A DNA stretch of 64,000 bases from an uncultured bacterium (GTDB lineage Bacteria > Patescibacteriota > Saccharimonadia > UBA4664 > SCTI01), in NCBI GenBank assembly GCA_963721685.1, contig CAVRJJ010000005.1:167943-231942 (forward strand), given 5' to 3'. This document shows positions 2,170-46,421 of this stretch, in pieces (position 1 is the stretch's first letter; each line of letters starts with the position of its first letter). A program made the translations under genes and the position numbers. The notes below the pieces were generated by a model, which was not told where the DNA came from, did not search any database, and was given only the letters and a program-made list of their open reading frames with translations.

Positions 2170-2427
2170 TTAACCTATGCGCACAACCAGCCGCGACACC
2201 CCCATTTTTGCCAGGCCGTCCAAGAGCTCTACCTGGCCCAGCCGCAGTTCGCTAGCTAAGCTGGCGCTGGCAGTGGTTATCTTAAGAACACCTTCATTAA
2301 GACTGGTGGCGCGACACTGCCCGGCGTAGCGCCCATCAAGATAGCGCTGGATTTCACTTAGTTGGCTGGCCCGCTCAAGCCCAAGTTCATGTGCCCGCTT
2401 CTTTAAATAATCCCGCATGCTATCCAC
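2170..2427 (-). CDS. DUF721 (RemB/DciA-like) protein encoded immediately downstream of recF
   Basis: 85 aa. Position directly after recF in the dnaA-dnaN-recF array is the classic location of DUF721/DciA-type proteins. The start overlaps the recF stop. Confidence 0.55.
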   Translation of the reverse strand: MDSMRDYLKKRAHELGLERASQLSEIQRYLDGRYAGQCRATSLNEGVLKITTASASLASELRLGQVELLDGLAKMGVSRLVVRIG

Positions 2428-3490
2428 GGCTTACCTCGTTAGTAAAAAGCGTGGCGTGGCTCGTAGTCAGCTCCTTAGAAACATCGGCATTGGTCGTGGT
2501 TATAACGGCCTGATAGTCGCCCAGGGTCTTAAGAAGGTGGCGGCGGCGGAAATCATCCAGTTCGCTAAACACATCATCTAGGAGTAAAAGCGGCTTGGCT
2601 CCGGTTTGATCCTTAATATAGGCCAGCTCGGCTAGTTTAAGCGACATTACCACGGTGCGCATTTCTCCACGGGAGGCCACGGCAGTAATGGGCGCGCCTT
2701 TAAAACTAATTGCCACGTCGTCGCGATGGGGGCCGATTGTCGTAAAACCGGCAGCCACATCACGAGCCTGGTTGGCTTCGAGCATCCGAATAAAGGCCGA
2801 GGGGTAGTCATCCTCCTCGCAGACTCCGCGATAGAGGAGGCCCAGATTCTCCCGCTCGCCCGAAATAGCCCCATAGGTGTCGGCGGCCAGGCGATTAACG
2901 TGACCCACTACCGCCCGACGCATTATGTTGATTTCGGCCGCGGCCTGGGCAAGCTGGACGTTCCAGGCAAACAACTCCGAGGTGTTGCCTTGCCATGCGC
3001 TTAGTAAAAAATTTCGCTGCTGCAGTATCCGCCGATACTGGTTGAGGATTTTCGCGTAGCGTTTGTCGGTTTGGGTTAGCACAAAGTCCAGATACCGGCG
3101 GCGGCGGTCGGGGCCGCCGGTAATCAACAGGAGGTCGCCAGGCTCAAATAGCACCACCCGAACCGTGCCCAGGTGTTCGATAAGGCTTTTGGCCACCCCT
3201 CCGTGACGCGCCCGTTTTTCGGTGCCCTTCTCGCTGGCCTGATAGCCCATTGTTAGTTCAGTCGTGTCGTCTAGGCTTGCCGCCACCCGATAAAAGGACT
3301 CCCCGTGGCGAATCAACTCGCCGTCTTTGGCTCGGAAAGATTTGGTAGTTGCAAGCACAAAGAGACCCTCAAGCAAATTGGTCTTCCCGGTAGCGTTTGG
3401 TCCAACAATTAAGGTAGCGTTTGGATCTAGGCGCACGGTGTGGTCGGCGTAAGAGCGGAAGTTGGTAAGGGTTAGTTGGGTGAGGCTCAT
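2420..3490 (-). CDS. recF: DNA replication and repair protein RecF
   Basis: N-terminal LTLTNFRSY, Walker A GPNATGKTNLLEG, signature and Walker B LLLLDDVFSELD. 356 aa. Confidence 0.95.
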   Translation of the reverse strand: MSLTQLTLTNFRSYADHTVRLDPNATLIVGPNATGKTNLLEGLFVLATTKSFRAKDGELIRHGESFYRVAASLDDTTELTMGYQASEKGTEKRARHGGVAKSLIEHLGTVRVVLFEPGDLLLITGGPDRRRRYLDFVLTQTDKRYAKILNQYRRILQQRNFLLSAWQGNTSELFAWNVQLAQAAAEINIMRRAVVGHVNRLAADTYGAISGERENLGLLYRGVCEEDDYPSAFIRMLEANQARDVAAGFTTIGPHRDDVAISFKGAPITAVASRGEMRTVVMSLKLAELAYIKDQTGAKPLLLLDDVFSELDDFRRRHLLKTLGDYQAVITTTNADVSKELTTSHATLFTNEVSRG

Positions 3491-3611
3491 TATTTACAGT
3501 ATAGCCCTCGCGGCCTTGGGCGCGCCGTGGTAGAGCTTTTATGGCATGTCGGCAGCCGGCACGAGCCATGATGACCATGCTCAGAAAAGTTGCTACCCGG
3601 TAAGCCCGGCC

Positions 3612-4721
3612 TTATGTTCGCAACGGCATAATAATGTGTACGTAATCATCGGTGTCGTCTTCGTGGAGCGGGCGCAAGGCACAAGGGTTAAGCTTGCCAC
3701 TCATGGCAAAGGAAATTTGCTTGGTCTTAATGGCCGCCAGGGCGTCGCTTAAATAGCGGGCATTAAGTGAGATCTCGCCATCATCGCCCGCAACCTCGCA
3801 TTCGGCGCTAGAAGTATTTTCTCCCACCTGGGAGGCTGAAGACATTATACGGATTTCGCCTTCAGCTTGAACTTCAACCCGAATGCTTCCGGCGTTTTCC
3901 CGCGCAAACAAGCTGGCCATTTTGGTGAGCCGCGCCAGCTCGGCGGTATCAAGGGTGGCAACTGTTTTTTCCTCTTGGGGAATAATTTGGCGGTAGTTGG
4001 GAAATTGCCCCTCAATGAGCCGGGATACAATCTCAATATTATCCAGCTGGAACATAACTTGGTTGTCGGCCAGGAAAACCCGCACTTCGCCGTCATTATC
4101 TGCTAAAATGCGCGCCAACTCCTGCATAGTACGCGCCGGAACGATAGCCTCGAGCTCAGCTGCTTTGGAGGATGCCAGGGGAATGTGGCGTTCTGCCAAC
4201 CGGTAGCTGTCGGTAGCGACTAAAATTAGGTTGCCTTCCTCGATGTACATGTACACACCGGCTAAAACCGGCCGGTTTTCATCAGGAGATGCCGCCACAA
4301 CAACTTCAGCGATGGCCTCTCTAAATTCGGCTGCCGGCAATACCACGGACGGGTCGGCCTTAACCTCTGGAATTAAAGGGAATTCATCAGCAGAAATACC
4401 GTTTATGTGAGATTCGTAGTGCGGGGTTGTGATGGTAAGGTTGGTTTCACTGGCACTTATTTCCAGCTTGCCGCTTGGTAGGTTGGAAACAAACTCGCTT
4501 AATAGGCGGGCCGGAGAGGTAACCGCACCTTCCTGGGTAACCTTACAACCAATCCAACAGGTAACTCCTATTTCTAGGTTGGTCGCTGAAAGACGCAGCC
4601 GATTGGTGTCGGTGCTTAATAGTATATTACTTAAAACCGGAAGACTGCTACGACTACTCACCACTCGTCCAACAGTTCCCAAGGCTTTATGAAAGTTTTC
4701 CTGGGTAACGCTGAGTTTCAT
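3612..4721 (-). CDS. dnaN: DNA polymerase III beta subunit (sliding clamp) DnaN
   Basis: MKLSVTQENFHKALGTVGRVV... has the three-domain clamp length (about 369 aa). The ATG at 4721 is preferred; the maximal ORF starts with GTG at 4730. Confidence 0.93.
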   Translation of the reverse strand: MKLSVTQENFHKALGTVGRVVSSRSSLPVLSNILLSTDTNRLRLSATNLEIGVTCWIGCKVTQEGAVTSPARLLSEFVSNLPSGKLEISASETNLTITTPHYESHINGISADEFPLIPEVKADPSVVLPAAEFREAIAEVVVAASPDENRPVLAGVYMYIEEGNLILVATDSYRLAERHIPLASSKAAELEAIVPARTMQELARILADNDGEVRVFLADNQVMFQLDNIEIVSRLIEGQFPNYRQIIPQEEKTVATLDTAELARLTKMASLFARENAGSIRVEVQAEGEIRIMSSASQVGENTSSAECEVAGDDGEISLNARYLSDALAAIKTKQISFAMSGKLNPCALRPLHEDDTDDYVHIIMPLRT

Positions 4722-4985
4722 TCTTTCCACATCCTTTTGTTGTTCCTAAGTATAACTTAAAAATCATTAAATTAAACAAGGGCTAGTCTTAGGGGGAGTG
4801 GACAGTGGGCATAACTTTGGAATTTTACCTGCCCGGACGCTTAATACTAATGCTTTCCATGTGGGTAAATACGCTTATGGTTGTTATAAAAAAGGGGATG
4901 AAAGGGGACTTAAAATATTTGGCCTGAGCATAACCATTAAGAGTTTGTGTATAAGCGGCGGAAAGCTTTAGTTGTTTCCACACAA
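4722..4985. promoter_or_regulatory. dnaA-dnaN intergenic region with DnaA-box-like 9-mers (putative oriC half)
   Basis: AT-rich 264 bp. TGTGGGTAA (4859-4867) and TGTGTATAA (4946-4954) are each one mismatch from TGTGGATAA. TTTCCACAT/TTTCCACAC variants lie near 4724 and 4975. Confidence 0.45.
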
Positions 4986-34770: not shown

Positions 34771-34845
34771 TCCGGCGTAGCTCAGTGGTAGAGCAGTTGA
34801 CTGTTAATCAATTGGTCGCAGGTTCGAATCCTGCCGCCGGAGCCA
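34771..34845 (+). tRNA. tRNA-Asn (anticodon GUU), CCA encoded
   Basis: Manual fold: acceptor TCCGGCG/CGCCGGA, D arm GCTC-AGTGGTA-GAGC, anticodon arm GTTGA-CTGTTAA-TCAAT (GTT), T arm GCAGG-TTCGAAT-CCTGC, discriminator G, CCA. Confidence 0.9.
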
Positions 34846-34932
34846 AAGGCGAGAAGATAACTTCTGTTATCGCCTCGCCTTTTGTTTTGGCAGGCAGGCT
34901 CCAAACCTAGGTTCGGTGGATGAGGAAATAGA
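34839..34932 (+). repeat. Direct repeat copy 1 (tRNA 3' end GGAGCCA + terminator hairpin + ~50 bp), bracketing the GAF cassette
   Basis: About 80% identical to 35569..35663. Both begin with GGAGCCAAAGGCGAGAAGATAAC and share ...AAACCTRGGTTCGGTGGATGAGGAAAT. Confidence 0.7.
34848..34888 (+). terminator. Rho-independent terminator after tRNA-Asn
   Basis: GGCGAG-AA-GATAAC TTCT GTTATC-GC-CTCGCC followed by TTTTGTTTT. Confidence 0.6.
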
Positions 34933-35050
34933 ATACAACGACTAAGCCAGACGTACACGTGGTATACTTCGATTAATATATACTTCAAGTATCACGTCCT
35001 ATTATTAACAAGGGGAGCATGCCATTAAAACAAGCATTCTAGATGATGAG

Positions 35051-35476
35051 TTGAAGCAAATCCGAGAGTTAGACAAAATCACCAGCGATGCGTCAGAATT
35101 CTTTAATGTCCCTTACGCGATGATAAATCTCGTAACATCGGATAGAGTTATATTCAAGTCTTGTACTGGTCTGGTTGTGGGCGATTCATTGGATCGTAAT
35201 GGTTCATTTTGCTCAGCGGCTTCGCAAAAAGATAGTCCGCTGGTCATAAAAGATGCGACTCAGGACTCTTACTTTAAAACTAATCCGCTGGTCGTTGGAA
35301 GCTTAAAAATACGATCATATGCTGGAAAATCATTACATGCACCTGACGGCACACGGATGGGCACTCTCTGCCTCCTCGATACAGTACCAAGAGATTACAC
35401 GAAGGAGCAGCTTCGTTCTTTGACGGACCGGGCAAAGCTGGCGAGCATAACGCTACATGCGATTTTAACTACCTAG
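35051..35476 (+). CDS. Stand-alone GAF-domain protein
   Basis: 141 aa with a GAF-like pattern of conserved Gly/Cys/Asp. TTG start with a weak RBS; the start is uncertain. Confidence 0.5.
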   Translation: MKQIRELDKITSDASEFFNVPYAMINLVTSDRVIFKSCTGLVVGDSLDRNGSFCSAASQKDSPLVIKDATQDSYFKTNPLVVGSLKIRSYAGKSLHAPDGTRMGTLCLLDTVPRDYTKEQLRSLTDRAKLASITLHAILTT

Positions 35477-35568
35477 CCAATTGCGCCTGGTGCCGCGGTG
35501 CGCAACATCCCCAACAATTTCTTTTGTGGTCATGGCAGGTTAAGCAGTTTGAAAATCGTCCCAGATGG

Positions 35569-35663
35569 GGAGCCAAAGGCGAGAAGATAACATCGGTTAT
35601 CGCCTCGCCCTTTGTTTTAGATGGAGGGATGCGAAACCTGGGTTCGGTGGATGAGGAAATGGA
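35569..35663 (+). repeat. Direct repeat copy 2, including a second terminator hairpin with covarying loop (ATCG instead of TTCT)
   Basis: GGAGCCAAAGGCGAGAAGATAACATCGGTTATCGCCTCGCCCTTTGTTTT... The stem is preserved and the loop changed. Confidence 0.7.
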
Positions 35664-35717
35664 TGAGAATGCACGCCAGTATATTCTTTCCAATGACGAA
35701 GGAGGTGGCGAAGCCAC

Positions 35718-35747
35718 AATCCTGCCGCCAGAGCCATTGCACTTATG
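35718..35747 (+). repeat. att-like junction 1: 19-nt copy of the tRNA-Asn 3' half (AATCCTGCCGCCaGAGCCA, 1 mismatch) fused to TTGCACTTATG
   Basis: Compared by eye to 34827-34845 of the tRNA. Confidence 0.65.
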
Positions 35748-35825
35748 CCTGTTCCATCATTCTGTTATTGTTAACGAATGCGGAGACATCCATAAATAGC
35801 ATCGCTTATTCTCGCAGTAATATTA

Positions 35826-36239
35826 GTGCCCTCTCTTTTTTTCGGCTTTCAAGCAGTCAAAGAGGAAAGTACTAAGAGTAATATAAAATCGGAGCTAGCT
35901 TCATTTAAAACCCCCAATGGTTGCACAGAAGTCGACAGAGCTTACCAAGCAGGAGGAATTGATGTTAAGTCCTTATGGTACGTTTACTATGAGTGCAGTG
36001 CCACGGTAGGGGTCATTCATTCTGACTTAATGAGTGCTTTGAAGAAAAATGGCTATATTGTCAGTGATGACCCTTTTGACAAAGAAGAGCATTTTGACCG
36101 GCACCTCAGCATTCCATTTTATAAATCACAAGAGTATTTGGCTTCCTGCGCCTTTGATTTTTCAGAATGGGAAGAAAGTGGTAAAACTTTTGAAAATCGT
36201 AATGTCAAAAAGATCACTCTTTCTCTAAGAAAAATATAA
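35826..36239 (+). CDS. Hypothetical protein (cassette gene)
   Basis: 137-aa ORF downstream of junction 1. No recognizable domain; start uncertain. Confidence 0.4.
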   Translation: MPSLFFGFQAVKEESTKSNIKSELASFKTPNGCTEVDRAYQAGGIDVKSLWYVYYECSATVGVIHSDLMSALKKNGYIVSDDPFDKEEHFDRHLSIPFYKSQEYLASCAFDFSEWEESGKTFENRNVKKITLSLRKI

Positions 36240-36357
36240 GCATTTAGAGTAGATTTCTTCCAGACCCTGTTTTACGCACCGAAGGTAGCGGTTAGTCGCT
36301 TAGCTTCCTCTAAATCACAATCAAACTCTGTTTCTTTGTTCTGGAACAAGACCGCTA

Positions 36358-36378
36358 GGGGGAGCCATTGCACTTATG
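36358..36378 (+). repeat. att-like junction 2 (GGGGGAGCCATTGCACTTATG)
   Basis: Motif copy preceded by CGCTAGGG, as at junction 6. Confidence 0.55.
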
Positions 36379-36383
36379 TTTGC

Positions 36384-38156
36384 TCAATTCAAGTTAAAAG
36401 AAAAATTGTCAGGATTTATATCATAGTCTGGAGCAAGTTTTTTAAATTCGGCTAAGAAAATACGATGAGCTTGGACTTTTAGTTGCGGAGGTACTTTTTG
36501 GCCTTCTGCTAAGCCAAGTCTCTGTAAGGTTCTACTTCCTGCCTCTTCAAGGGCTTTAGTGCGATGGCTGGTTAGCGATTCGGGTGCGTCCGTGGTCGGT
36601 TCACTTCCTAAGGCAATCCCTTCAGCTATTTGCGTAGGGATTTTAGGTGACGGCCTACCGACAAAAGCTTCTTGTAAATCTTCGGGCAAAGCCTTTACTA
36701 GTTCAAGAATTTTATCGGCCTCCGCGTCGCTCGCGTATAAAACGATGCCGTCAGCCCGCAATGATATCTTCTCGCCGCGTGCTGCTCGTTGTGTATCCTG
36801 GCATAGTTCCATAGCCCGATCCAGCATTTTGCCGTGGACTGTCAGACCTGATTCATTAGCTGCCTTCATAAGCGCTGAAAAAACCTTTACAGAATCCTCG
36901 GGTCTCGGGTTCAGGTAAATCCGCTTGGTCATTTCAGTATTTTGATTTCGCCCTTCCGCTTTAGCCTTAGCGTAGGAGTCACTTGACCAGTGAATAAATT
37001 GTCCTGAAACTTCTTCCTGAAAGCGTATATTAGGCCTTACCCCACGAACTTTGCCATCTGTGCTTAATATATTAATTGGTCTTGGTTCGCCGGGTATAGG
37101 AATAGGTAAGCCCTCAAACTGTATATCCTGTCCGCGAGCATGTGCACCAGCGGCAACTTTACTAAAGAATTCCCTTCCATCTGGATCGCCATCTCTTAGT
37201 TCTTGTTGATATCTAGTCCTGGCATCAACCAATAATTTCCTTTCGCCGCGACCGAGTTCGCCTGAAACCGCAATTTTTAAATTATCGGCGATCATTGCTC
37301 TGATTTGGCTATGAATATCAGCGAGCGTACCAGGCTTTTGGGCCGCTTCATAGTCATCCTGGGTCGCAGGCACTTTATCTAAAAATACCTTTAAGACGGT
37401 TGCTTCGCCTTCTGGATTTGTAAGCACTTCATTCAATAGATTCATAACGAAATCCTCGGAAAAGCCGCGCGATATTTTTTCAGCCTCTTCAAATGATGAG
37501 GCTCTAAATGGCAACTTTTCTTTTGATTTCGCTTCTTTTTCTTCTAAATCGACTAAGTCTTTGTATTCACCTAGCCTATAGTCATCATATCCCGGTGCTT
37601 TCAAGCGAATCATTTGCATCATAACTTTTTTTGCTATATTCACCTTTGCTAACTCTTCTTTGCGCCATTCTTTATCCTCACGGTTGGGACTGATACGGAC
37701 TGCATGTTCGCCATTGCTCCAAGCGTATCCAACATCAACGGCGTTCGCGCTTCCGCTTGCAATGATTTTTTGAGCGATGGCATCAATATCTGCGACATCA
37801 AGCTGGGTGGGGTAGATAGTACTTTCGGTATCTACGGGCTCTTCGGGTCTTTGATCTTCCGGGACACGCCTTCTAGTTTCCCTGACAACATTTAATAAGT
37901 TCTGGCTAGATCTATCGAATTCATCCGAATTAGTAATACTTTGAGCGACAGAATCTATAAGATTACCTCTGATGGTTTGAAGCTGTTCATCTGAGAATCG
38001 TTCGTAAGGATTTGGCGCTGTTTCGCTTTCTACTTTCGGCTGGCCAGCTTCGGGTTTTCCCTGTATAGCCTCAAGCTCTTCGGCCAAAGCTTCCCCTGAA
38101 AAGGTTTTAGTCTCAGATTGTGCTTCTGGTGTTGTAGTGCCCTCAGGATTACTCAT
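36384..38156 (-). CDS. Large acidic hypothetical protein (590 aa), no recognizable domain
   Basis: Long uninterrupted ORF with an E/D-rich N-terminus, possibly phage- or plasmid-derived. No catalytic motif identified by eye. Confidence 0.55.
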   Translation of the reverse strand: MSNPEGTTTPEAQSETKTFSGEALAEELEAIQGKPEAGQPKVESETAPNPYERFSDEQLQTIRGNLIDSVAQSITNSDEFDRSSQNLLNVVRETRRRVPEDQRPEEPVDTESTIYPTQLDVADIDAIAQKIIASGSANAVDVGYAWSNGEHAVRISPNREDKEWRKEELAKVNIAKKVMMQMIRLKAPGYDDYRLGEYKDLVDLEEKEAKSKEKLPFRASSFEEAEKISRGFSEDFVMNLLNEVLTNPEGEATVLKVFLDKVPATQDDYEAAQKPGTLADIHSQIRAMIADNLKIAVSGELGRGERKLLVDARTRYQQELRDGDPDGREFFSKVAAGAHARGQDIQFEGLPIPIPGEPRPINILSTDGKVRGVRPNIRFQEEVSGQFIHWSSDSYAKAKAEGRNQNTEMTKRIYLNPRPEDSVKVFSALMKAANESGLTVHGKMLDRAMELCQDTQRAARGEKISLRADGIVLYASDAEADKILELVKALPEDLQEAFVGRPSPKIPTQIAEGIALGSEPTTDAPESLTSHRTKALEEAGSRTLQRLGLAEGQKVPPQLKVQAHRIFLAEFKKLAPDYDINPDNFSFNLN

Positions 38157-38295
38157 ATACTCATTAAACGCTACCTATGCTTCAAAGTCTAACCTGGGAA
38201 ATAGCCGCGCGATTGACAAGTTTTCGCCAGGTTGAAGTAACTTCCCGATTTCTATCACCTCGTGCAGATATCCAGTTCGTAACGTCCGGGGCAAA

Positions 38296-38314
38296 GGGAG
38301 CCGTTGCACTTATG
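38296..38314 (+). repeat. att-like junction 3 (GGGAGCCGTTGCACTTATG)
   Basis: Motif copy in the divergent region between the 590-aa gene and the 171-aa gene. Confidence 0.55.
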
Positions 38315-38338
38315 TTTATAACCTGACACTATGAAGCT

Positions 38339-38854
38339 ATGATGAATCTCTATCATTTTGTTCCAGAAAACATGCAAGGGTCTGTTCTCTATTCACTTAA
38401 TGACATGAAGACAAAAATTCCCAAGCTTTTTAACCAACAGGCAGCTAAATATAAAGAGAGGGAGGAGGTGAAAGAAACGGCTATTCCGGGCTTAGGTGGC
38501 TGGAATGATGTTATCCATTTGTCTCCAATAGATCCGAACAAGGTTATGGCGGCGCTAAAAAATGCTAGTGTCCCGACCGACTTTGCATGGAAAGCGTTTC
38601 AGATCAACGCAGACACACTTGATTGGGCTAAGCTTATTATCATGGTGACTGTTAAAGACGAAGATGGTTACCACAAAGAGTTTCTGCCTTTTACCAAAGA
38701 GAACTACGAAAAGCACAATGACGTCCCCGAACTTACAAAGCAGTACTATTCAGAATGCGTTGCAAAAGGGGAACAGCCTTTAACCTATGGCGGTGCTCCT
38801 CATGTACTATATAAGGGCGTCATTGACACAAAAAGTTTGAAAATTATCTCTTAG
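38339..38854 (+). CDS. Hypothetical protein (171 aa)
   Basis: ORF directly after junction 3. No recognizable domain. Confidence 0.5.
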   Translation: MMNLYHFVPENMQGSVLYSLNDMKTKIPKLFNQQAAKYKEREEVKETAIPGLGGWNDVIHLSPIDPNKVMAALKNASVPTDFAWKAFQINADTLDWAKLIIMVTVKDEDGYHKEFLPFTKENYEKHNDVPELTKQYYSECVAKGEQPLTYGGAPHVLYKGVIDTKSLKIIS

Positions 38855-38877
38855 GGGGAGCCAATTTTGCATTTATA
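38854..38877 (+). repeat. att-like junction 3b, degenerate (GGGGGAGCCAATTTTGCATTTATAG)
   Basis: Starts at the stop codon of the 171-aa gene. Shares the GGAGCCA...TTGCA..TTAT skeleton. Confidence 0.4.
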
Positions 38878-39010
38878 GACGCCAAAGCTGCCTCTTCTAA
38901 GGGTAGCTCTCTGTTATGGGTTGGAGTCATTTAGATATGCAGCACGCCATCTTTTATTTTTTCTTCTAGCATAAGGAAAAAGGAAAAAATATATTTCAAA
39001 AAGCTAATGA

Positions 39011-39080
39011 TGACGACATATGATACGACATAGTATTAATAGAGTTGACATAGGACACGACATAGTGTAGTATTAAGACA
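39011..39080 (+). repeat. Two tandem ~32-bp iteron-like units with GACATA cores (39015, 39027, 39047, 39059) upstream of the DUF4325 gene
   Basis: GACATATGATACGACATAGTATTAATAGAGTT / GACATAGGACACGACATAGTGTAGTATTAAGA. Core spacing 12/20/12. Confidence 0.55.
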
Positions 39081-39082
39081 TT

Positions 39083-40111
39083 ATGACTATTCAGGAACAG
39101 ATTCAAGCTGTCGCCAAAAACAAGAAAGTTTTCAAAACTTCAGACGTAGCCAAGGAAGCACCAGAGTTTTCAAGGCAATACATTAGTTCGATAATTAGCG
39201 ATCAAGTAAGAAAAGGTACCCTCGTAAGGGAGGGATCAGGTCGCTGGTCTACTTACGCGCTTCCACAATATAAAGATTATTTAGGCCATAGATTACGAAG
39301 GCGCCTAAAGCTTAATGGCCTCAAAGAGCATGAAGTACTTGACGATATCATGCGGGTTAGTACCTTGCTAACAAGGATACCTGAAAATATTCAAAGCATA
39401 TTCAACTATGCTTTTTCTGAAATGCTAAATAACGCCATAGATCACTCTCGCTCTAAAAATGCTGTAACTGAAGTCATAGAAGAAGATGAAGGGCTCAAAT
39501 TCATAGTTGATGACTTCGGGGTTGGGGTTTTCCGTAATGTTATGCAAGAAAGGAACCTTAACTCTGAGCTAGAGGCAATCCAGGACTTACTTAAAGGCAA
39601 AACAACTACAGCCCCTCAGGCCCATTCAGGCGAAGGTATTTTCTTTACTTCTAAAGCAGCCGATGTGTTTATGCTAGAAAGCTTTGGTTTAAGATTAAGA
39701 ATAGACAATAAGATTAAAGATATTTTCGTGGAAGAGGTTGGCACGGAGAAAAAGGGTACCAGAGTAACTTTTGAAGTTTCCACAAAATCAAAGAAGCACT
39801 TAGCAGATTTATTCGCTAAATATCAGACTCACTCTGAAGAACCAGCGTTTGATAAGACCGAAATCCAAGTAAGGCTTTACACCATGGGTACTATCTATGT
39901 CTCCAGGTCACAGGCTAGAAGGGTGTTAACTGGTCTGAACAAATTTCGCACAGTAATCCTTGATTTCGAAAATGTTCCAACTATTGGGCAAGCATTTGCA
40001 GACGAGATTTTTAGAGTATTCAAAAATGCGAATCCAAATATCACAATTAAGATCGCAAACGCGAATGAGGCAGTTCAGTTTATGATTATACGATCCCAGT
40101 CATCCAGTTGA
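39083..40111 (+). CDS. wHTH - GHKL (RsbW/SpoIIAB-like) ATPase - STAS-like (DUF4325) single-chain protein
   Basis: N box FSEMLNNAIDHS, G1 IVDDFGVGV, G2 HSGEGIFFTS. The C-terminus TVILDFENVPTIGQAFADEIF resembles an anti-sigma-antagonist/DUF4325 fold. N-terminal ~90 aa is helical and basic. Confidence 0.65.
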   Translation: MTIQEQIQAVAKNKKVFKTSDVAKEAPEFSRQYISSIISDQVRKGTLVREGSGRWSTYALPQYKDYLGHRLRRRLKLNGLKEHEVLDDIMRVSTLLTRIPENIQSIFNYAFSEMLNNAIDHSRSKNAVTEVIEEDEGLKFIVDDFGVGVFRNVMQERNLNSELEAIQDLLKGKTTTAPQAHSGEGIFFTSKAADVFMLESFGLRLRIDNKIKDIFVEEVGTEKKGTRVTFEVSTKSKKHLADLFAKYQTHSEEPAFDKTEIQVRLYTMGTIYVSRSQARRVLTGLNKFRTVILDFENVPTIGQAFADEIFRVFKNANPNITIKIANANEAVQFMIIRSQSSS

Positions 40112-40150
40112 CATAAGATTTAGACATAGAATTTTAGTTGCCGACATAAC
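40106..40150 (+). repeat. Iteron-like GACATA units downstream of the DUF4325 gene (cores at 40110, 40123, 40143)
   Basis: TTGACATAAGATTTAGACATAGAATTTTAGTTGCCGACATAAC. Same 13/20 spacing and orientation as the upstream array. Confidence 0.5.
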
Positions 40151-40181
40151 ATCCAATTTATTGATATGGCATGTTCACTGC

Positions 40182-40201
40182 GGAGAGCCATTGCACTTAT
40201 G
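40182..40201 (+). repeat. att-like junction 4 (GGAGAGCCATTGCACTTATG)
   Basis: Motif copy adjacent to the 3' end of the minus-strand DUF1905 gene. Confidence 0.55.
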
Positions 40202-40202
40202 T

Positions 40203-40514
40203 TTAGAACTCTCGCAACTTGAAAGATATGCGTACTTTATCACCTAGCTCAAGCTTTTCGCTTTTTCGCACCTTAGTATTTATAGCAATGAAGTGTGTGC
40301 CATCGCCCATAGGCAGCAGGGAGGTTGGCCAGGTACTACTTCCTAGGGTTGCCTCAACAGCAATCAACCCCCGGTCTGCAAGTTCATGCAGCGGTTGACT
40401 AACGCTCAACGGTGCGGCGACATAATACCAACCCCCTTCCTGGGGGAAAAGTTGCAGTACCCCACTAAAGCTAAATGGCTTCATGAGCCAATTATATATG
40501 ATGATCAATAGCAA
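40203..40514 (-). CDS. DUF1905-like small protein (N-terminal half of a YdeI-type protein)
   Basis: 103 aa with a pattern that fits DUF1905 (GGWYYVAAP ... HFIAIN ... GDKVRISF). Confidence 0.5.
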   Translation of the reverse strand: MLLIIIYNWLMKPFSFSGVLQLFPQEGGWYYVAAPLSVSQPLHELADRGLIAVEATLGSSTWPTSLLPMGDGTHFIAINTKVRKSEKLELGDKVRISFKLREF

Positions 40515-40548
40515 TCTTTATCTTGATAGCTTTTAGAACGGCTAAAAC

Positions 40549-41457
40549 ATGCTTGCTATAATGAGCGGGATGCCAGAACCAACTCAGCCAAATTATTCCA
40601 AGCAAATAAGTTCAGATTTTCCTAACTTGGTTGTTGAAAAAGTAGAAAAACTTGGTACGGGTTGGGATCATGTTGCGCTGGAAGTAAATGATTCTTTGAT
40701 CTTCCGTTTTCCGCGGGATATTTCTGATGTAGATGAGATTTCCCAGACTGTCGTTTACGAGACGAAGGTATTGCGGCATCTGCAGGACAAACTGCCCGTT
40801 GCTATACCGGACCCACAGCATATTGCTCCCGATCATGCTTATTTTGGCTATCCAAAACTCCAAGGCGAAAAGCTCATTGATATTTTGCCAAGCTTTAGCG
40901 AAGCTGACAAAGCCGCCTTGTGGGACGATTGGGTGGATATAGCGACTGCCATTCATCAGAATGTATCTGTTGATATGGCTCGCAAACTTGGTGTGCCGAA
41001 CTTGGATATTCATATAGAGACAGCAAAGGAGGTTTTCAGCTTAGAAAATATTGACTCTCAGGTTGTAAGCTTTGCCCAGAATACTATAGAAGCGGCGGAA
41101 GCAATTGACATGAATAAGCTGCCACTTTTGTTTATCCATAACGACCTACAATTTCATAATTTGCTCGTCGACCCTGAAACAAAACGGGTTATCGCGGTCA
41201 TTGACTGGACAGATGTTTGTATAGGTACGACGGAGAGGGAGTTAGCAATGTGGGAGTGGTGCCATGATGATCAGCTAGATGAAGTGGCTAAAAGATATAC
41301 AGCTAAGACAGGTAGGGCGGTTGACAGAGACCAGGCAAAAGTTTTTAGGAAGATTGAAGAAGTAGGCGATTACGTCGAGCAGATAAAAAGTGGTGATCTT
41401 GAAGGGGTCGAAGAATCCTTAGCACATATTCGAAAATGGATTGCCGAAGTCGCATGA
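40549..41457 (+). CDS. Aminoglycoside/choline-kinase-like phosphotransferase (APH family)
   Basis: Catalytic loop HNDLQFHNLLVD and the Mg-binding IDWTDVCIG (Brenner motif and DFG-like D). Confidence 0.7.
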   Translation: MLAIMSGMPEPTQPNYSKQISSDFPNLVVEKVEKLGTGWDHVALEVNDSLIFRFPRDISDVDEISQTVVYETKVLRHLQDKLPVAIPDPQHIAPDHAYFGYPKLQGEKLIDILPSFSEADKAALWDDWVDIATAIHQNVSVDMARKLGVPNLDIHIETAKEVFSLENIDSQVVSFAQNTIEAAEAIDMNKLPLLFIHNDLQFHNLLVDPETKRVIAVIDWTDVCIGTTERELAMWEWCHDDQLDEVAKRYTAKTGRAVDRDQAKVFRKIEEVGDYVEQIKSGDLEGVEESLAHIRKWIAEVA

Positions 41458-41505
41458 GGTATACGCGTCCATTTTGCGTAATATTATGAATGATATGATA
41501 ATGCA

Positions 41506-41853
41506 ATGAGCCACTTGGAAACCTTTTTTATCCTAAGTCTCGCAACGCAATTAGTCCATTCAATTGAAGAGTTAACAACGGGTTTTCACAAACAATACTA
41601 TCTCTTTAAGATGTCCTTTAAGGCATTTCTAGCCTTTGAAATATTATTTACCCTGTTCTGGGTGGGAGTGCTTCTGCTGCCAGACTCTCCGTCCAAGGGC
41701 TACCTGCAAGCTTTCTTCCTCATCCTGATGTTTGCCAATGGTGTGCAACATCTAGTGTGGTGGGGAACTGTAAAAAAGTATGTTCCGGGTTTAATAACGG
41801 CTTTCGTCCATGCCGCACTATTTTTGGCCTTTTACTATAAGAGCATTTTTTAA
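41506..41853 (+). CDS. HXXEE-domain small membrane protein
   Basis: HSIEEL motif near the N-terminus and 3-4 transmembrane helices. Confidence 0.45.
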   Translation: MSHLETFFILSLATQLVHSIEELTTGFHKQYYLFKMSFKAFLAFEILFTLFWVGVLLLPDSPSKGYLQAFFLILMFANGVQHLVWWGTVKKYVPGLITAFVHAALFLAFYYKSIF

Positions 41854-42527
41854 TGGCATACTACAAACGTTTTCAACTTGTTACCCACTTTTTTCTCTGG
41901 CCTCGGCTGCTTGCGTGGTTTTACCGCAAAGGCATGGATGACGTTAAGAGTCTTGGGCTTAAACCTGACTTTAACAAGGAAGATTTTTCCTGTCTGCTCT
42001 GCGGGGTGAGCGGAGAAATAACAGCCGAGGTCTTCATTAACTTTGTTATCAGTAAAAATAAGCAAGCCAACATTATCATTATTGATCTTGGCGAAGAACA
42101 GGTAGCCGCTGTTCAGTCGCTCGTAAACCGGAAATACAAAGATCATAACATTAGCGTTAAACAAATGAACGTCCTCGATATATCAAAGCATTTTAAGCCA
42201 AACTCCTTTGATTGGATTGAAACGGACGGTCTGGTTGAATACTTAGACAAGCCAGGAATTCAAAGTCTATTAACGCAATGGAAAGCGTTGCTAAGACCGG
42301 GCGGCTTCATTACTACCCGTGACTTTGCCAGCTCATCTATACCAGGCCGATTACTCGATAAGTTTCGTATGTGGTTTATGAAAAATTACCTAACCCTCAA
42401 TGGCTACGTTCATACCAAGCAGGAACTAGATGAGGCATTTAGAAAAATCGGCTTTATCTTTAATTCCGGGCCGACGCCAATCCCGACCTTCAAGCGTTAT
42501 GCGCTCATAGAAAAGGACACTCGCTAA
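41853..42527 (+). CDS. Class I SAM-dependent methyltransferase-like protein
   Basis: Rossmann-like IIIDLGEEQ / NVLDISKHF segments, about 224 aa. Start overlaps the upstream stop. Confidence 0.5.
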   Translation: MAYYKRFQLVTHFFLWPRLLAWFYRKGMDDVKSLGLKPDFNKEDFSCLLCGVSGEITAEVFINFVISKNKQANIIIIDLGEEQVAAVQSLVNRKYKDHNISVKQMNVLDISKHFKPNSFDWIETDGLVEYLDKPGIQSLLTQWKALLRPGGFITTRDFASSSIPGRLLDKFRMWFMKNYLTLNGYVHTKQELDEAFRKIGFIFNSGPTPIPTFKRYALIEKDTR

Positions 42528-42716
42528 GAGGTGGGGAGGAATCAATAATTGAAATACCAACACACACCGAAGCCGATCTAATTAAGTTTAATGAGGTATT
42601 TTCTTTCCTATCATAAGTGGCACTTTCGGGATCAGCCAGAAGGTAAGAGTAGTCGCTTAGTATGGTATAGGTCCAAATCAAACGCTGTTCCTTTGTTCGG
42701 AAGCAAGTCAACCAGT

Positions 42717-42734
42717 GGAGCCATTGCACTTATG
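42717..42734 (+). repeat. att-like junction 5 (GGAGCCATTGCACTTATG)
   Basis: Motif copy 47 bp upstream of the pilin-like gene. Confidence 0.55.
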
Positions 42735-42780
42735 CTTATATTATTGCTACACTGAGCTTAATTAACTCAAGAGAGCACTC

Positions 42781-43320
42781 ATGATAAAGCTGAACCAAAA
42801 GGGATTTACCGGCTTTGAAGTTGTATTAATCGTTATTGCCCTGGTAGCTATTGGAGCAGCGGGCTACTTCGCGTATGAAGCGCGGCAAGATAAAACCGTT
42901 CTTGTAGCCGCACCAAAGAAAACAGAGAAGACGATTCAAGCTCAACCACAGCCTGTAAGTAGTAAGCCAGAAACAACTAGTGTTTATAATATTAAAGATC
43001 TTGGAGTTGAATTTGCGCTGCCCTCAAGTATCTCCGATCTATCGTATAAAGTCGTCAACTTAGGTGGTGAGCAAGCGGTTAGCTCTGTGACTTTTTCAAC
43101 TAAGCGGTTGGAAGCGGCAGGCTGTTCACTTGATTCAGCGCCTCTTGGACATTTAACATATACGGAAGGAAAGGGAGGTATTCTAGTTGCCTCCGCGAGA
43201 GGATCCAACCTTTATTATATAGAGCCCAAAGGAAGCTGTAGCGCAGACCCAAGCCTTAGAAACTGGCAGAAGCTGAAGGAAGCTCTCAAAACTACTGTGA
43301 GTGACTACAAGGGAGGGTAA
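42781..43320 (+). CDS. Prepilin-type (type IV pilin / ComGC-like) N-terminal cleavage/methylation protein
   Basis: MIKLNQKG|FTGFEVVLIVIALVAIGAAGYFAY: Gly at -1, Phe at +1, Glu at +5, then a hydrophobic helix. Confidence 0.6.
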   Translation: MIKLNQKGFTGFEVVLIVIALVAIGAAGYFAYEARQDKTVLVAAPKKTEKTIQAQPQPVSSKPETTSVYNIKDLGVEFALPSSISDLSYKVVNLGGEQAVSSVTFSTKRLEAAGCSLDSAPLGHLTYTEGKGGILVASARGSNLYYIEPKGSCSADPSLRNWQKLKEALKTTVSDYKGG

Positions 43321-43423
43321 GTAAAGCTGGCTCGTTGGGTGGGCCAGTCGGGAGCCATAAATAGTAGACTCAGCTCATTGACTGGGCATCGGCCGGCAAA
43401 TTAGATGCCTCTTTCTAGCTATT

Positions 43424-43675
43424 TCAACGATGATCGCAGCCGGCCCAGCAACAGGGACGGCGCATTCCCTCTATAAGCTCCGTGCGCGTTCTTTCAATAC
43501 GCCGTGCCCTCGTCTCAGTCTTCTTAGCTTCTTCAACCCAGCATATCCATTCATTGCGCGCCAGCGGTGTAATATCTTCCCATGCCGCTAAAGCCGTCGA
43601 GGTAGAAAGCAGGGCTTTTTTTAAGTCCGCTGGCATTTCGTGTGCCACACCCCCAGCGATTTCTTTTGTAGCCAT
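43424..43675 (-). CDS. YdeI/OmdA C-terminal-domain protein
   Basis: ITPLARNEWICWVEEAKKTETRARRIERT matches the OmdA/YdeI C-terminal pattern. Confidence 0.5.
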   Translation of the reverse strand: MATKEIAGGVAHEMPADLKKALLSTSTALAAWEDITPLARNEWICWVEEAKKTETRARRIERTRTELIEGMRRPCCWAGCDHR

Positions 43676-43710
43676 AAACTTATACTACTCCAGGCTACAA
43701 GTAACACGCT

Positions 43711-43727
43711 AGGGCATTGCACTTATG
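43711..43727 (+). repeat. att-like junction 6, degenerate (AGGGCATTGCACTTATG) followed by TGTTATAAT
   Basis: Preceded by CGCTAGGG as at junction 2. An extended -10-like TGTTATAAT lies downstream. Confidence 0.5.
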
Positions 43728-45932: not shown

Positions 45933-46421
45933 ATGGTAAAACACAATCAAAAAGGGATGGCAGCGCTTTGGGTGGTCCTGATTGTAGTAGTGGTGGCGGC
46001 TGTGGGAACCGCTGGCTATTTTGCGTACAAGGCCGCCACCCCTAAAGCCGCTCACAATCCTACGGCAGGCTCCCAAGAATTAACGGTAAGCGAGTGGGGG
46101 GTGAAGCTAAGCGTACGAGACGCCGCTAAAATAACCTATTCAGTTGCCGGCTCTACTGGGAGAGAGGGCGGGCCAGCTTATGAAGCCTCAGCCATACCCG
46201 TAATCAAACAAACGTTCTTGAAAGATAAAAACTGCAGCTTAGGGATCGCGCTCTATCGAACCAAAACAGAGCAATCAACGTTAATTGGCCAAACCAAAAA
46301 ACTAGGAGACTACTTCTATTTTGTCGGCGGATCCCCGGACAGTTGCGCTAGTAAATCTGATGATCAGCTAAAAGGACGGATACTGGCTGATTTCAGAATT
46401 GAAAACCTCTCTGCCAAATAA
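45933..46421 (+). CDS. Pilin-like paralog (degenerate prepilin motif)
   Basis: The N-terminus MVKHNQKGMAALWVVLIVVVVAAVGTAGYFAYKAA parallels the 42781 gene but lacks Glu at +5. Confidence 0.45.
   Translation: MVKHNQKGMAALWVVLIVVVVAAVGTAGYFAYKAATPKAAHNPTAGSQELTVSEWGVKLSVRDAAKITYSVAGSTGREGGPAYEASAIPVIKQTFLKDKNCSLGIALYRTKTEQSTLIGQTKKLGDYFYFVGGSPDSCASKSDDQLKGRILADFRIENLSAK

Follow-up and report, generated by a model that had tools for sequence, protein, structure and literature searches.

The first demonstration that a kinase/STAS pair controlling a repressor regulates anti-phage immunity dates from 2026 and concerns the CapK/CapS system (Chambers, Rani, Min, Villa, Corbett, EMBO J 2026; PMC13373217). 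CapK is a helix-turn-helix (HTH)-STAS-GHKL protein that resembles anti-sigma kinases, and CapS is a homodimeric repressor, composed of STAS and winged helix-turn-helix (wHTH) domains, which binds TTAA palindromes in its own promoter and in the promoter of an immune operon lying downstream. Single-stranded DNA (ssDNA) of about 20 nt activates CapK, CapS is then phosphorylated by this kinase at Ser54 in STAS helix 2, and the resulting monomers no longer repress. The capK gene is always followed by capS, and an immune operon usually lies downstream (348/443). A related pair, VapK/VapS, gates a VapC toxin and protects against a phage (PMC13373217). Coupling of the PIN.4 group of VapC proteins to DUF4325 genes was also reported (PMC5499597), and we infer that this is the same association as VapKSC. 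Here, we describe a gene for a single-chain protein with wHTH, GHKL and DUF4325/STAS-like domains, located at positions 39083-40111 (+) of a 64,000-nt stretch of DNA from an uncultured Saccharimonadia bacterium (contig CAVRJJ010000005.1). The whole stretch is referred to as the window, and the gene under study is the open reading frame (ORF) at these positions.

CapK/CapS is the closest characterised system, and the gene in the window is a single-chain, re-ordered and stand-alone variant of this arrangement. The comparison was made by domain types and published descriptions, and the same three domain types are found in both. In both cases the GHKL domain is nearest to those of SpoIIAB and RsbW and the genes occur in mobile or immune genomic regions. 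The sites bound by the CapS wHTH-STAS protein overlap its own promoter, so that it regulates itself, and the repeat arrays described below, to which binding is predicted, contain the -35 and -10 elements. The two systems differ in that CapK and CapS are separate proteins, whereas wHTH, GHKL and STAS-like domains follow each other here in one chain; an immune operon usually lies downstream of capK/capS, while no conserved neighbour was found here in 91 non-redundant loci, the set used for all neighbourhood comparisons; CapS sites are TTAA palindromes, in contrast to the paired direct repeats of this family; and the absolutely conserved serine of CapS STAS helix 2 corresponds to a position that is Ser or Thr in 57% of the family, an invariant Ser-Arg-Ser being present instead. 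As these four defining features (two genes, domain order, immune operon and serine) are not shared, the protein is regarded as similar in design to CapK/CapS and not as a member of it. No CapS or VapS chain was among the matches listed when the family profile was compared with PDB chains at E<=10, a set in which the presence of 9Z71-9Z7O is uncertain. VapKSC is likewise a kinase-STAS pair acting as a stress-responsive gate, but it is a three-gene operon with a PIN toxin and without a DNA-binding domain, and no PIN gene stands beside the family in the 91 loci.

The classical partner-switching pairs SpoIIAB-SpoIIAA and RsbW-RsbV share with this protein the GHKL fold and motifs and a STAS-like partner domain, and they provide its best structural matches. 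They differ from it in that kinase and STAS-like domain are fused here, a wHTH with a predicted operator is added, no sigma partner is nearby and the canonical phospho-serine is not conserved. A kinase and a STAS antagonist on one polypeptide are reportedly also found in Rv1364c of Mycobacterium tuberculosis, which is said to combine PAS, PP2C, RsbW-like kinase and STAS domains and to act on SigF; unlike the present protein, it has a sensor PAS domain and a phosphatase, no DNA-binding domain and no mobile cassette.

The reading that we favour, at roughly an even chance, is that the protein is a self-contained, self-repressing, one-polypeptide version of the kinase/STAS regulatory switch. If so, the CapK/CapS design would have a far larger single-chain relative in this uncharacterised family, which comprises at least some 8000 clusters at 90% identity, is found mainly in the poorly understood CPR/Patescibacteria and occurs on phage contigs as well. 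An earlier account of this DNA, made from its letters and ORFs (the sequence-only reading), had proposed the three-domain architecture and suggested a role in defence or addiction. The repeat arrays with their predicted self-regulation and the non-conserved canonical STAS phosphorylation site are points beyond it. The protein and its domains are as follows.

39083..40111, + strand: single-chain wHTH-GHKL-DUF4325 ORF with an ATG start, 342 aa (from Pfam, homologs and the structure model).
39083..39262, + strand: N-terminal wHTH, residues 1-60 (Pfam, model, conservation).
39284..39787, + strand: SpoIIAB/RsbW-type GHKL kinase/ATPase domain, residues ~68-235 (Pfam, Foldseek, conservation); motifs are the N box E113/N116/N117/H121, G1 D144/G146/G148, lid and G2 K173...G183/G185, and T226.
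39845..40108, + strand: DUF4325/STAS-like domain, residues ~255-342 (Pfam, model, conservation).

The architecture and the RsbW/SpoIIAB subtype of the GHKL domain proposed by the sequence-only reading were borne out by Pfam, the structure model and conservation. The motifs that it quoted were located in the translation as LNNAIDHS (residues 115-122), DDFGVG (143-148) and GEGIFF (183-188). In the profile search, DUF4325, described as STAS-like, exceeded its threshold (55.3 bits, cutoff 23; residues 277-332, profile positions 1-64 of 64). The two GHKL profiles were sub-threshold in the window protein, HATPase_c with 21.7 bits (cutoff 26.4; residues 109-233) and HATPase_c_2 with 21.0 bits (cutoff 27.4; residues 102-196). 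STAS itself was matched weakly and below its cutoff (E=0.039; residues 279-335), as was AbiEi_4 by the wHTH (13.5 bits, cutoff 25; residues 6-53). The AlphaFold2 model had a mean pLDDT of 76, with about 93 for the wHTH, 80-90 for the GHKL core and a disordered ATP lid; the wHTH was modelled as helix-helix-helix-strand-strand. Foldseek placed SpoIIAB first (1til_E, E=3.5e-5, TM 0.73 on the target), and the SpoIIAB entries 1til/1l0o/1tid/1th8 (TM 0.62-0.75 on the target) were followed by RsbW (6m36/6m37) and UsfX (8jzt/8ih8), so that the folds predicted to be nearest are those of SpoIIAB, RsbW and UsfX. The sub-threshold GHKL call is thus rescued by the structure match, by invariant Bergerat-fold residues and by precomputed HATPase_c and HATPase_c_2 matches in most homologs, and the SpoIIAB/RsbW subtype of the GHKL domain was confirmed by the modelled structure.

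The C-terminal domain has the secondary structure strand-strand-helix-strand-helix-strand-helix. When it was modelled alone (pLDDT 68), weak matches to STAS domains recurred (E 0.03-0.7, TM 0.40-0.52), including those of BicA, prestin, SLC26A2, the stressosome and RsbS. A serine recombinase or Toprim identity, suggested by the VSRSQ and DxD/E motifs, was rejected since no such fold was matched while STAS recurred; in the resolvase motif, moreover, the Arg at position -2 is replaced by Tyr, His, Leu or Phe in the family. Membership among AbiEi antitoxins of type IV toxin-antitoxin systems was also discarded: the other AbiEi-type matches were equally weak (PADLOC E=0.0088; NCBIfam 14 bits against 150), all of them concern the wHTH only, and no AbiEii-like neighbour was seen.

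The family comprises at least 7997 clusters at 90% identity, nearly all of about 340 aa, and an exhaustive search of 50%-identity representatives yielded 2219 clusters, almost all full length, 656 of them at E<=1e-30. The best 120 matches are 305-384 aa long and 56-100% identical and come from Saccharimonadia, CPR2, Roizmanbacteria, Gottesmanbacteria and other Patescibacteria. A family so large and so uniform in length places the architecture far beyond chance. Among 369 distinct sequences of 30-100% identity, the ATP-site residues N116, N117, H121, D144, G146, G148 and G183 are kept in all, E113 in 368, and G185 is invariant or nearly so. In the C-terminal domain, Ser274-Arg275-Ser276 is invariant (369, 369 and 368 of 369), with G302 and Q303 in 367 each. 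Thr300, at the N-terminus of STAS helix 2, occupies the canonical acceptor position, an equivalence with SpoIIAA Ser58 and CapS Ser54 that depends on the Pfam STAS alignment and the model; it is Thr in 179 and Ser in 31 of the 369, and Met, Val, Leu or Glu in the remaining members. The Ser-Arg-Ser motif sits one helix before Thr300, at the start of that helix. The wHTH is the most variable part of the family. No function is established for such fusions, as the sequence-only reading had stated, and DUF4325 is named, in passing, by only three papers of the literature searched.

Stand-alone DUF4325 proteins of 94-113 aa, 56-59% identical to the C-terminal domain, are encoded at L104 3158-8285 and L102 3118-4342, where their genes come after unrelated proteins of about 250 aa; those of L104 carry a TrmB-type wHTH. 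In L104 up to three such pairs of a ~250-aa and a short protein stand in tandem, with a DUF4325 match on record for the first short protein only, and the first short gene has a TTTACAAG/TTGACGAG site pair right before its ATG. These loci were considered as split wHTH-GHKL plus DUF4325 versions and rejected, as the ~250-aa proteins of both show no homology to the wHTH-GHKL part.

The gene is flanked by repeats, and its promoter lies within them.

39015..39082, + strand: upstream direct-repeat array, a putative operator, with GACATA at 39015, 39027, 39047 and 39059 and GACATT at 39078.
39045..39073, + strand: promoter-like TTGACA-17 nt-TAGTAT inside the upstream array, its -10 ending 9 nt before the ATG.
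40106..40148, + strand: downstream array, with GACATA at 40110, 40123 and 40143 (spacing 13/20).

The spacing of the upstream array, 12/20/12/19 nt, corresponds to two 32-nt units. The first GACATA of the downstream array overlaps the TGA stop codon; this second array is kept in the closest lineages (L018, L001) and absent from most lineages. Of all GACATA sites on both strands of the 64 kb, 7 of 24 fall in the two ~50-nt patches flanking the gene, all seven on the + strand. No Shine-Dalgarno motif precedes the ATG, and with a -10 hexamer only 9 nt away the mRNA is therefore probably leaderless or nearly so.

The same organisation recurs in homologous loci, which were gathered from genomes (17 loci) and metagenomes (80 loci), with several strain variants. 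At least four same-strand copies of a 7-mer, with one mismatch allowed, were present in the 100 nt upstream in 70/87 loci, compared with 30/319 control regions. The site positions are stereotyped at about -54/-43/-21/-10, with a third pair in some loci; the two sites of a pair are spaced by ~11-12 nt, and successive pairs by ~32 nt. A near-consensus promoter (>=10 of 12 positions) was embedded in the array in 80/84 loci, and in 60/80 the distance from the end of its -10 hexamer to the ATG is 5-13 nt. A Shine-Dalgarno-like motif at -20 to -4 was found before 9% of target genes and 19% of controls, which points to leaderless or nearly leaderless expression.

The repeat sequence itself varies by lineage (GACATAG; TTGACAAT/TTTACAAT; TACAACT; GACACCAC), and this variation is tied to residues 53-54 in the wing of the wHTH: all 9 loci with Thr-Ala have ACAAC, 41 of 48 with Thr-Arg have ACAAT and 5 of 6 with Gly-Arg have ACAT. 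In a tree of the sequence from residue 71 to the end, the Thr-Ala class is scattered over four or more positions. Paired sites numbered 136 at the family's own promoters and 31 in 1220 kb of other sequence, a density about 600-fold higher. Because the array holds the -35 and -10 elements, ends a few nucleotides before the ATG and co-varies with two wing residues, it is probably the operator for the protein's own wHTH, acting in negative autoregulation. With a predicted operator, a promoter and candidate regulatory residues in hand, direct testing in vitro is possible.

A mechanism can be proposed for the self-repressing switch that we favour. A SpoIIAB-like dimer formed through the GHKL domains would set two wHTHs on one repeat pair, and two or three such dimers would cover the -35 element, the -10 element and the transcription start, keeping the gene repressed. 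A trigger, which by analogy with CapK and VapK might be ssDNA or another cue of stress or infection, would alter the GHKL domain in its nucleotide state or its kinase activity. The GHKL domain would next act on a STAS-like domain, that of its own chain or of an adjacent one, either by ATP-dependent docking or by phosphorylation of Ser274/Ser276 in place of the canonical helix-2 position. The DNA-bound oligomer would be broken, the DNA released and a burst of expression would follow. Since no output is encoded beside the gene, it would have to lie within the protein, which might phosphorylate or sequester a target of the host or of a phage, or else at operator sites far from the gene. Regulation of a STAS-like domain through Ser-Arg-Ser would, if true, extend the known modes of partner switching.

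Several points weigh against this proposal. The repeats contain or resemble the -35/-10 consensus (TTGACA, TACAAT), so part of their conservation could reflect promoter rather than operator function. Palindromes are used by CapS and by a symmetric dimer of the SpoIIAB kind, and the sites here are direct repeats instead. More distant phage-borne relatives have ordinary promoters bearing a Shine-Dalgarno motif, without clear arrays. The domain order is unlike that of CapK. A phosphorylation switch of the CapS type cannot be general in a family in which Thr300 is so often neither Ser nor Thr, and Ser274/Ser276 as acceptors are a guess. The fold assigned to the C-terminal domain depends on a model of moderate quality and on matches at E>=0.03. 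Finally, a loop that regulates itself alone has no evident output.

The sequence-only reading had stated that no cognate sigma factor is nearby, and this held: phmmer with two sigma-70-family query sequences detected no such ORF in the 64-kb window, and sigma-like ORFs occurred in the flanks of only L003, L078 and, weakly, L008, never adjacent to the gene. Homologs consistently encoded beside sigma factors, which would have made this ordinary partner switching, were accordingly not seen. Classical anti-sigma switching in trans, with the GHKL domain inhibiting a distant sigma factor and the fused STAS-like domain serving as antagonist in the manner of Rv1364c, is nevertheless to be weighed, given that the nearest folds, SpoIIAB, RsbW and UsfX, are sigma-binding kinases, that the very high conservation fits a conserved partner such as a sigma factor and that the putative operator resembles sigma-70 promoter hexamers. 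We consider it improbable: besides the rarity of sigma-70-family genes in the flanks (2-3/91 loci) and their absence from the window, the canonical phospho-serine is not conserved, a wHTH with its own co-varying operator is foreign to known partner-switching modules, and CapK shows that a protein can resemble anti-sigma kinases without binding sigma (PMC13373217).

By its distribution and surroundings, the gene appears to behave as a horizontally moving single-gene insert. Same-orientation tRNA genes are enriched 0-3 kb upstream (22 in 155 kb, 0.14/kb, against ~0.03/kb elsewhere). Of the targets, 12/72 are bracketed by exact direct repeats (>=15 nt, each copy no more than 260 nt from a gene end), compared with 4/317 controls (OR 15.7, p=7e-7). 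The bracketing duplications of target sequence are 15-74 nt long and derive from terminator hairpins in L007, L084 and L096, from a tRNA end in L081, from the last codons of an upstream ORF ending GSDHCPV in L051 and L071 (checked by translation for L051) and from the first codons of the downstream gene in L030 and L093. The elements of L081 follow each other as tRNA-Met, a terminator hairpin, an array of six sites, the gene, 48 nt, the repeat copy and a second terminator; the repeat copy is an exact 26-nt duplicate of the tRNA-Met 3' end, and the 1.3-kb insert holds this gene alone. Loci L018 and L020, from two strains, encode an identical protein and are 99% identical over more than 10 kb downstream, and their homology ends 79 nt before the ATG, at the left edge of the array. 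The window and a relative with 82% identity share homology from -88 to +22 only. In 44/50 loci, GC is lower in the gene than in its flanks, the median difference being 6.3 points. In L004 (2821-3240), 4 nt separate the homolog's stop codon from the 3' end of a tmRNA gene that follows on the other strand, and such 3' ends are classical integration sites.

Full-length relatives with 30-45% identity are present on 47 IMG/VR contigs, some between a transcriptional regulator and terS/terL/portal genes and others near an integrase. The window protein (E=1e-7) and the viral-contig relatives match phrog_3364 through the GHKL region; this match spans only part of the protein, and the PHROG is without annotated function. 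Searches with tblastn gave no match in 50,697 phage or 72,556 plasmid (PLSDB) records, and the viral-contig relatives had none in GenBank phages or E. coli genomes. The contigs L110/L112, L114/L115, L118 and L123 carry relatives in predicted prophages, whose hosts may be culturable. The relatives of ~37% identity on the IMG/VR contigs L131, L126, L136, L141 and L145 lie between a phrog_36 regulator and terminase/portal genes, and each has an ordinary promoter with a Shine-Dalgarno motif and no obvious repeat array.

In the window, the gene occupies one of about five or six cassettes of 0.6-2.5 kb that lie next to a tRNA gene (34771-43727).

34771..34845, + strand: tRNA-Asn(GTT), whose 3' end seeds the boundary repeats; its last 19 nt are duplicated at 35718-35736.
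38298..38314, + strand: left cassette boundary repeat, GAGCCGTTGCACTTATG, with 1 mismatch to the 17-mer.
40185..40201, + strand: right cassette boundary repeat, GAGCCATTGCACTTATG.
38339..38854, + strand: 171-aa ORF sharing the cassette, without a family match and without a homolog beside the gene elsewhere.

The boundary 17-mer, GAGCCATTGCACTTATG, is a tRNA 3' end joined to its flank. Copies start at 35731, 36362, 38298, 40185 and 42718, all on the + strand, and a sixth + strand copy with 3 mismatches at 43711; 0.23 copies were expected in shuffles. A decayed tRNA-3'-like sequence precedes each copy. The target cassette thus spans 38315-40184 and contains the gene and the 171-aa ORF. The GC content of the cassette stretch is 0.40-0.45, compared with 0.50-0.57 in the flanks. 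A search for strain variants of the array found this arrangement in one other contig, and LexA was not on record. A stand-alone cassette in a mobile-island context, as the sequence-only reading described it, agrees with the att-like 17-mers, the tRNA adjacency, the bracketing duplications, the low GC content and the relatives on viral contigs.

The array resembles tRNA-linked integrative islands in that the repeated tRNA-Asn 3' end bounds its segments, GC is lower and content is variable. It differs from them in the small size of the segments (0.6-2.5 kb) and in the lack of an integrase among the array and window genes scanned, and in other genomes it is terminator or gene-end duplications that bracket the gene. 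No recombinase was found in the cassettes or in ~30 window ORFs scanned (phmmer with an integrase-like probe, and Pfam), and the only known RNA element in 34.5-44 kb was the tRNA. An integron cassette was rejected because the 17-mer boundaries are not imperfect palindromes of the attC type and no tyrosine recombinase was detected among the window ORFs scanned. A XerC/D dif-like nature of the 17-mer was also set aside, as no convincing inverted-arm structure was visible by eye. A recurrent one-gene insert that is bracketed by duplicated target sequence, and with which no recombinase was found, bears on how ultra-small genomes acquire genes.

A piece of around 95 nt (34839-34932), beginning within the tRNA-Asn 3' end and taking in its terminator hairpin, is duplicated at 35569-35663 with 84-93% identity, and the two copies, 730 nt apart, bracket a GAF-domain gene (35051-35476). 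The genes of the cassettes are mutually unrelated: GAF; a 137-aa ORF; HopA1-like; the 171-aa ORF with the target; DUF1905/APH/HXXEE/methyltransferase; and pilin-like with OmdA. In L002 (7266, 9828, 11041) and L024 (5858, 7063, 11174), three copies of a locus-specific 15-22-nt repeat bound adjacent cassettes, of which only one holds the gene, as in the window.

These observations bear on whether the protein moves its own DNA. As the mobility factor of a minimal element, it would bind the end arrays by its wHTH, in the manner of arm-type or transposon-end sites, with the GHKL ATPase driving synapsis and insertion leaving long target duplications. Some inserts hold this gene alone (L081, L096, L084, L030), arrays lie on both sides of it in the lineage of the window, synteny breaks exactly at the array edge and no recombinase was seen in the cassettes or window genes scanned. 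We regard this explanation as very improbable, since the protein has no nuclease or recombinase fold or motif, its C-terminal domain matches STAS and not resolvase or Toprim, both arrays have the same orientation, the downstream one is absent from most lineages, and the partly diverged repeat copies look like the attL/attR of conventional site-specific integration. Neighbouring cassettes with the same 17-mer carry unrelated genes and no arrays, and a recombinase of the host or of an element acting in trans is therefore the simpler explanation. The fullest form of the idea, in which gene and arrays are a new kind of minimal autonomous mobile element whose sole protein recognises the arrays via its wHTH, captures its own DNA with the GHKL ATPase and the STAS-like domain with its Ser-Arg-Ser, and inserts it at tRNA 3' ends, at terminators and at the ends of genes, leaving target duplications of 15-115 nt, deserves even less credence; the mobility factor of its own element is the least likely of the alternatives.

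No neighbour family occurs in more than 7/91 loci, and none is adjacent in more than 3. The upstream intergenic gap is always at least 63 nt, and same-strand downstream genes within 45 nt are found in only ~15 loci. A conserved downstream cargo was therefore rejected, as these close genes are mutually unrelated and all differ (MazG-like, ligase, RadC, NUDIX, nuclease-like, membrane proteins). The suggestion in the sequence-only reading that the gene forms a module with the neighbouring genes 35826, 36384-38156 and 38339 was not upheld: none of them has a homolog next to the gene in the other 90 loci, and the 17-mer places the first two in other cassettes. The commonest near neighbour is the DUF1905 protein, encoded in the window at 40203-40514 (-); it lies within two genes of the target in 4/91 loci (the window, L014, L016 and L099) and is adjacent in 3, in varying orientation. 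In L153-L158 (P0052, a CPR2 bacterium), the surroundings of the homolog are stable and comprise a SocA/Panacea-domain protein, an AAA_15/AAA_21 ATPase, an N6_N4 methyltransferase carrying HTH_17, a Rce1-like protein and RhuM, a setting that resembles a defence island.

The role in defence or addiction suggested earlier is reasonable by analogy, because CapK/CapS and VapKSC are immune regulators and a toxin-antitoxin system (PMC13373217). In its strong form, the protein would be a fused toxin-antitoxin or abortive-infection effector: a harmful GHKL kinase or sequestering surface would be restrained in cis by the STAS-like domain as well as by tight self-repression, to be freed on infection or DNA damage, and the cassette would be kept by protecting or addicting its host. 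The gene is cargo in mobile contexts (tRNA-linked cassettes, and viral contigs where it lies near an integrase or just upstream of terS), the P0052 setting resembles a defence island, tight autoregulation is typical of toxin-antitoxin and abortive-infection modules, the wHTH has its weak AbiEi-like matches, the kinase-STAS pair of VapKSC gates a toxin and protects against a phage (PMC13373217), and the PIN.4 VapC group is reported to be coupled to DUF4325 genes (PMC5499597). This explanation seems to us rather unlikely, in view of the lack of a recognisable toxin domain, a PADLOC check for defence systems that gave no match beyond the weak AbiEi wHTH, the many family loci that lie among housekeeping genes, and sequence conservation unusually strong for arms-race proteins.

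The same housekeeping surroundings, together with the abundance and uniformity of the family in Patescibacteria, would fit a one-component housekeeping regulator of the CPR whose GHKL domain senses ATP/ADP, whose controlled genes are distant and whose mobile look is incidental; switches of the SpoIIAB type are sensitive to the ATP/ADP ratio. Such a role is quite improbable, a little more so than sigma control in trans: no synteny is seen even at 82% identity, in most loci the gene has a higher AT content than its host, target duplications flank it, relatives are found on viral contigs, and the paired sites are concentrated at the family's own promoters instead of being spread over other genes.

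Other genes of the window were recorded in passing. The gene at 36384-38156 (-) has a cassette to itself and encodes a 590-aa protein with an above-threshold match to the HopA1 family of type III effectors (PF17914, 33.6 bits), and its host appears to be a Saccharibacteria genome. Two small proteins encoded at 42781-43320 and 45933-46421 have N-termini that look like type IV pilin signals (e.g. MIKLNQKGFTGFEVVLIVIALVAIGAAGYF) and no Pfam match. At 2423-4730, a RecF/SMC_N-family ATPase gene, likely recF, and dnaN lie side by side, and the window is therefore suspected to lie near the chromosomal replication origin.

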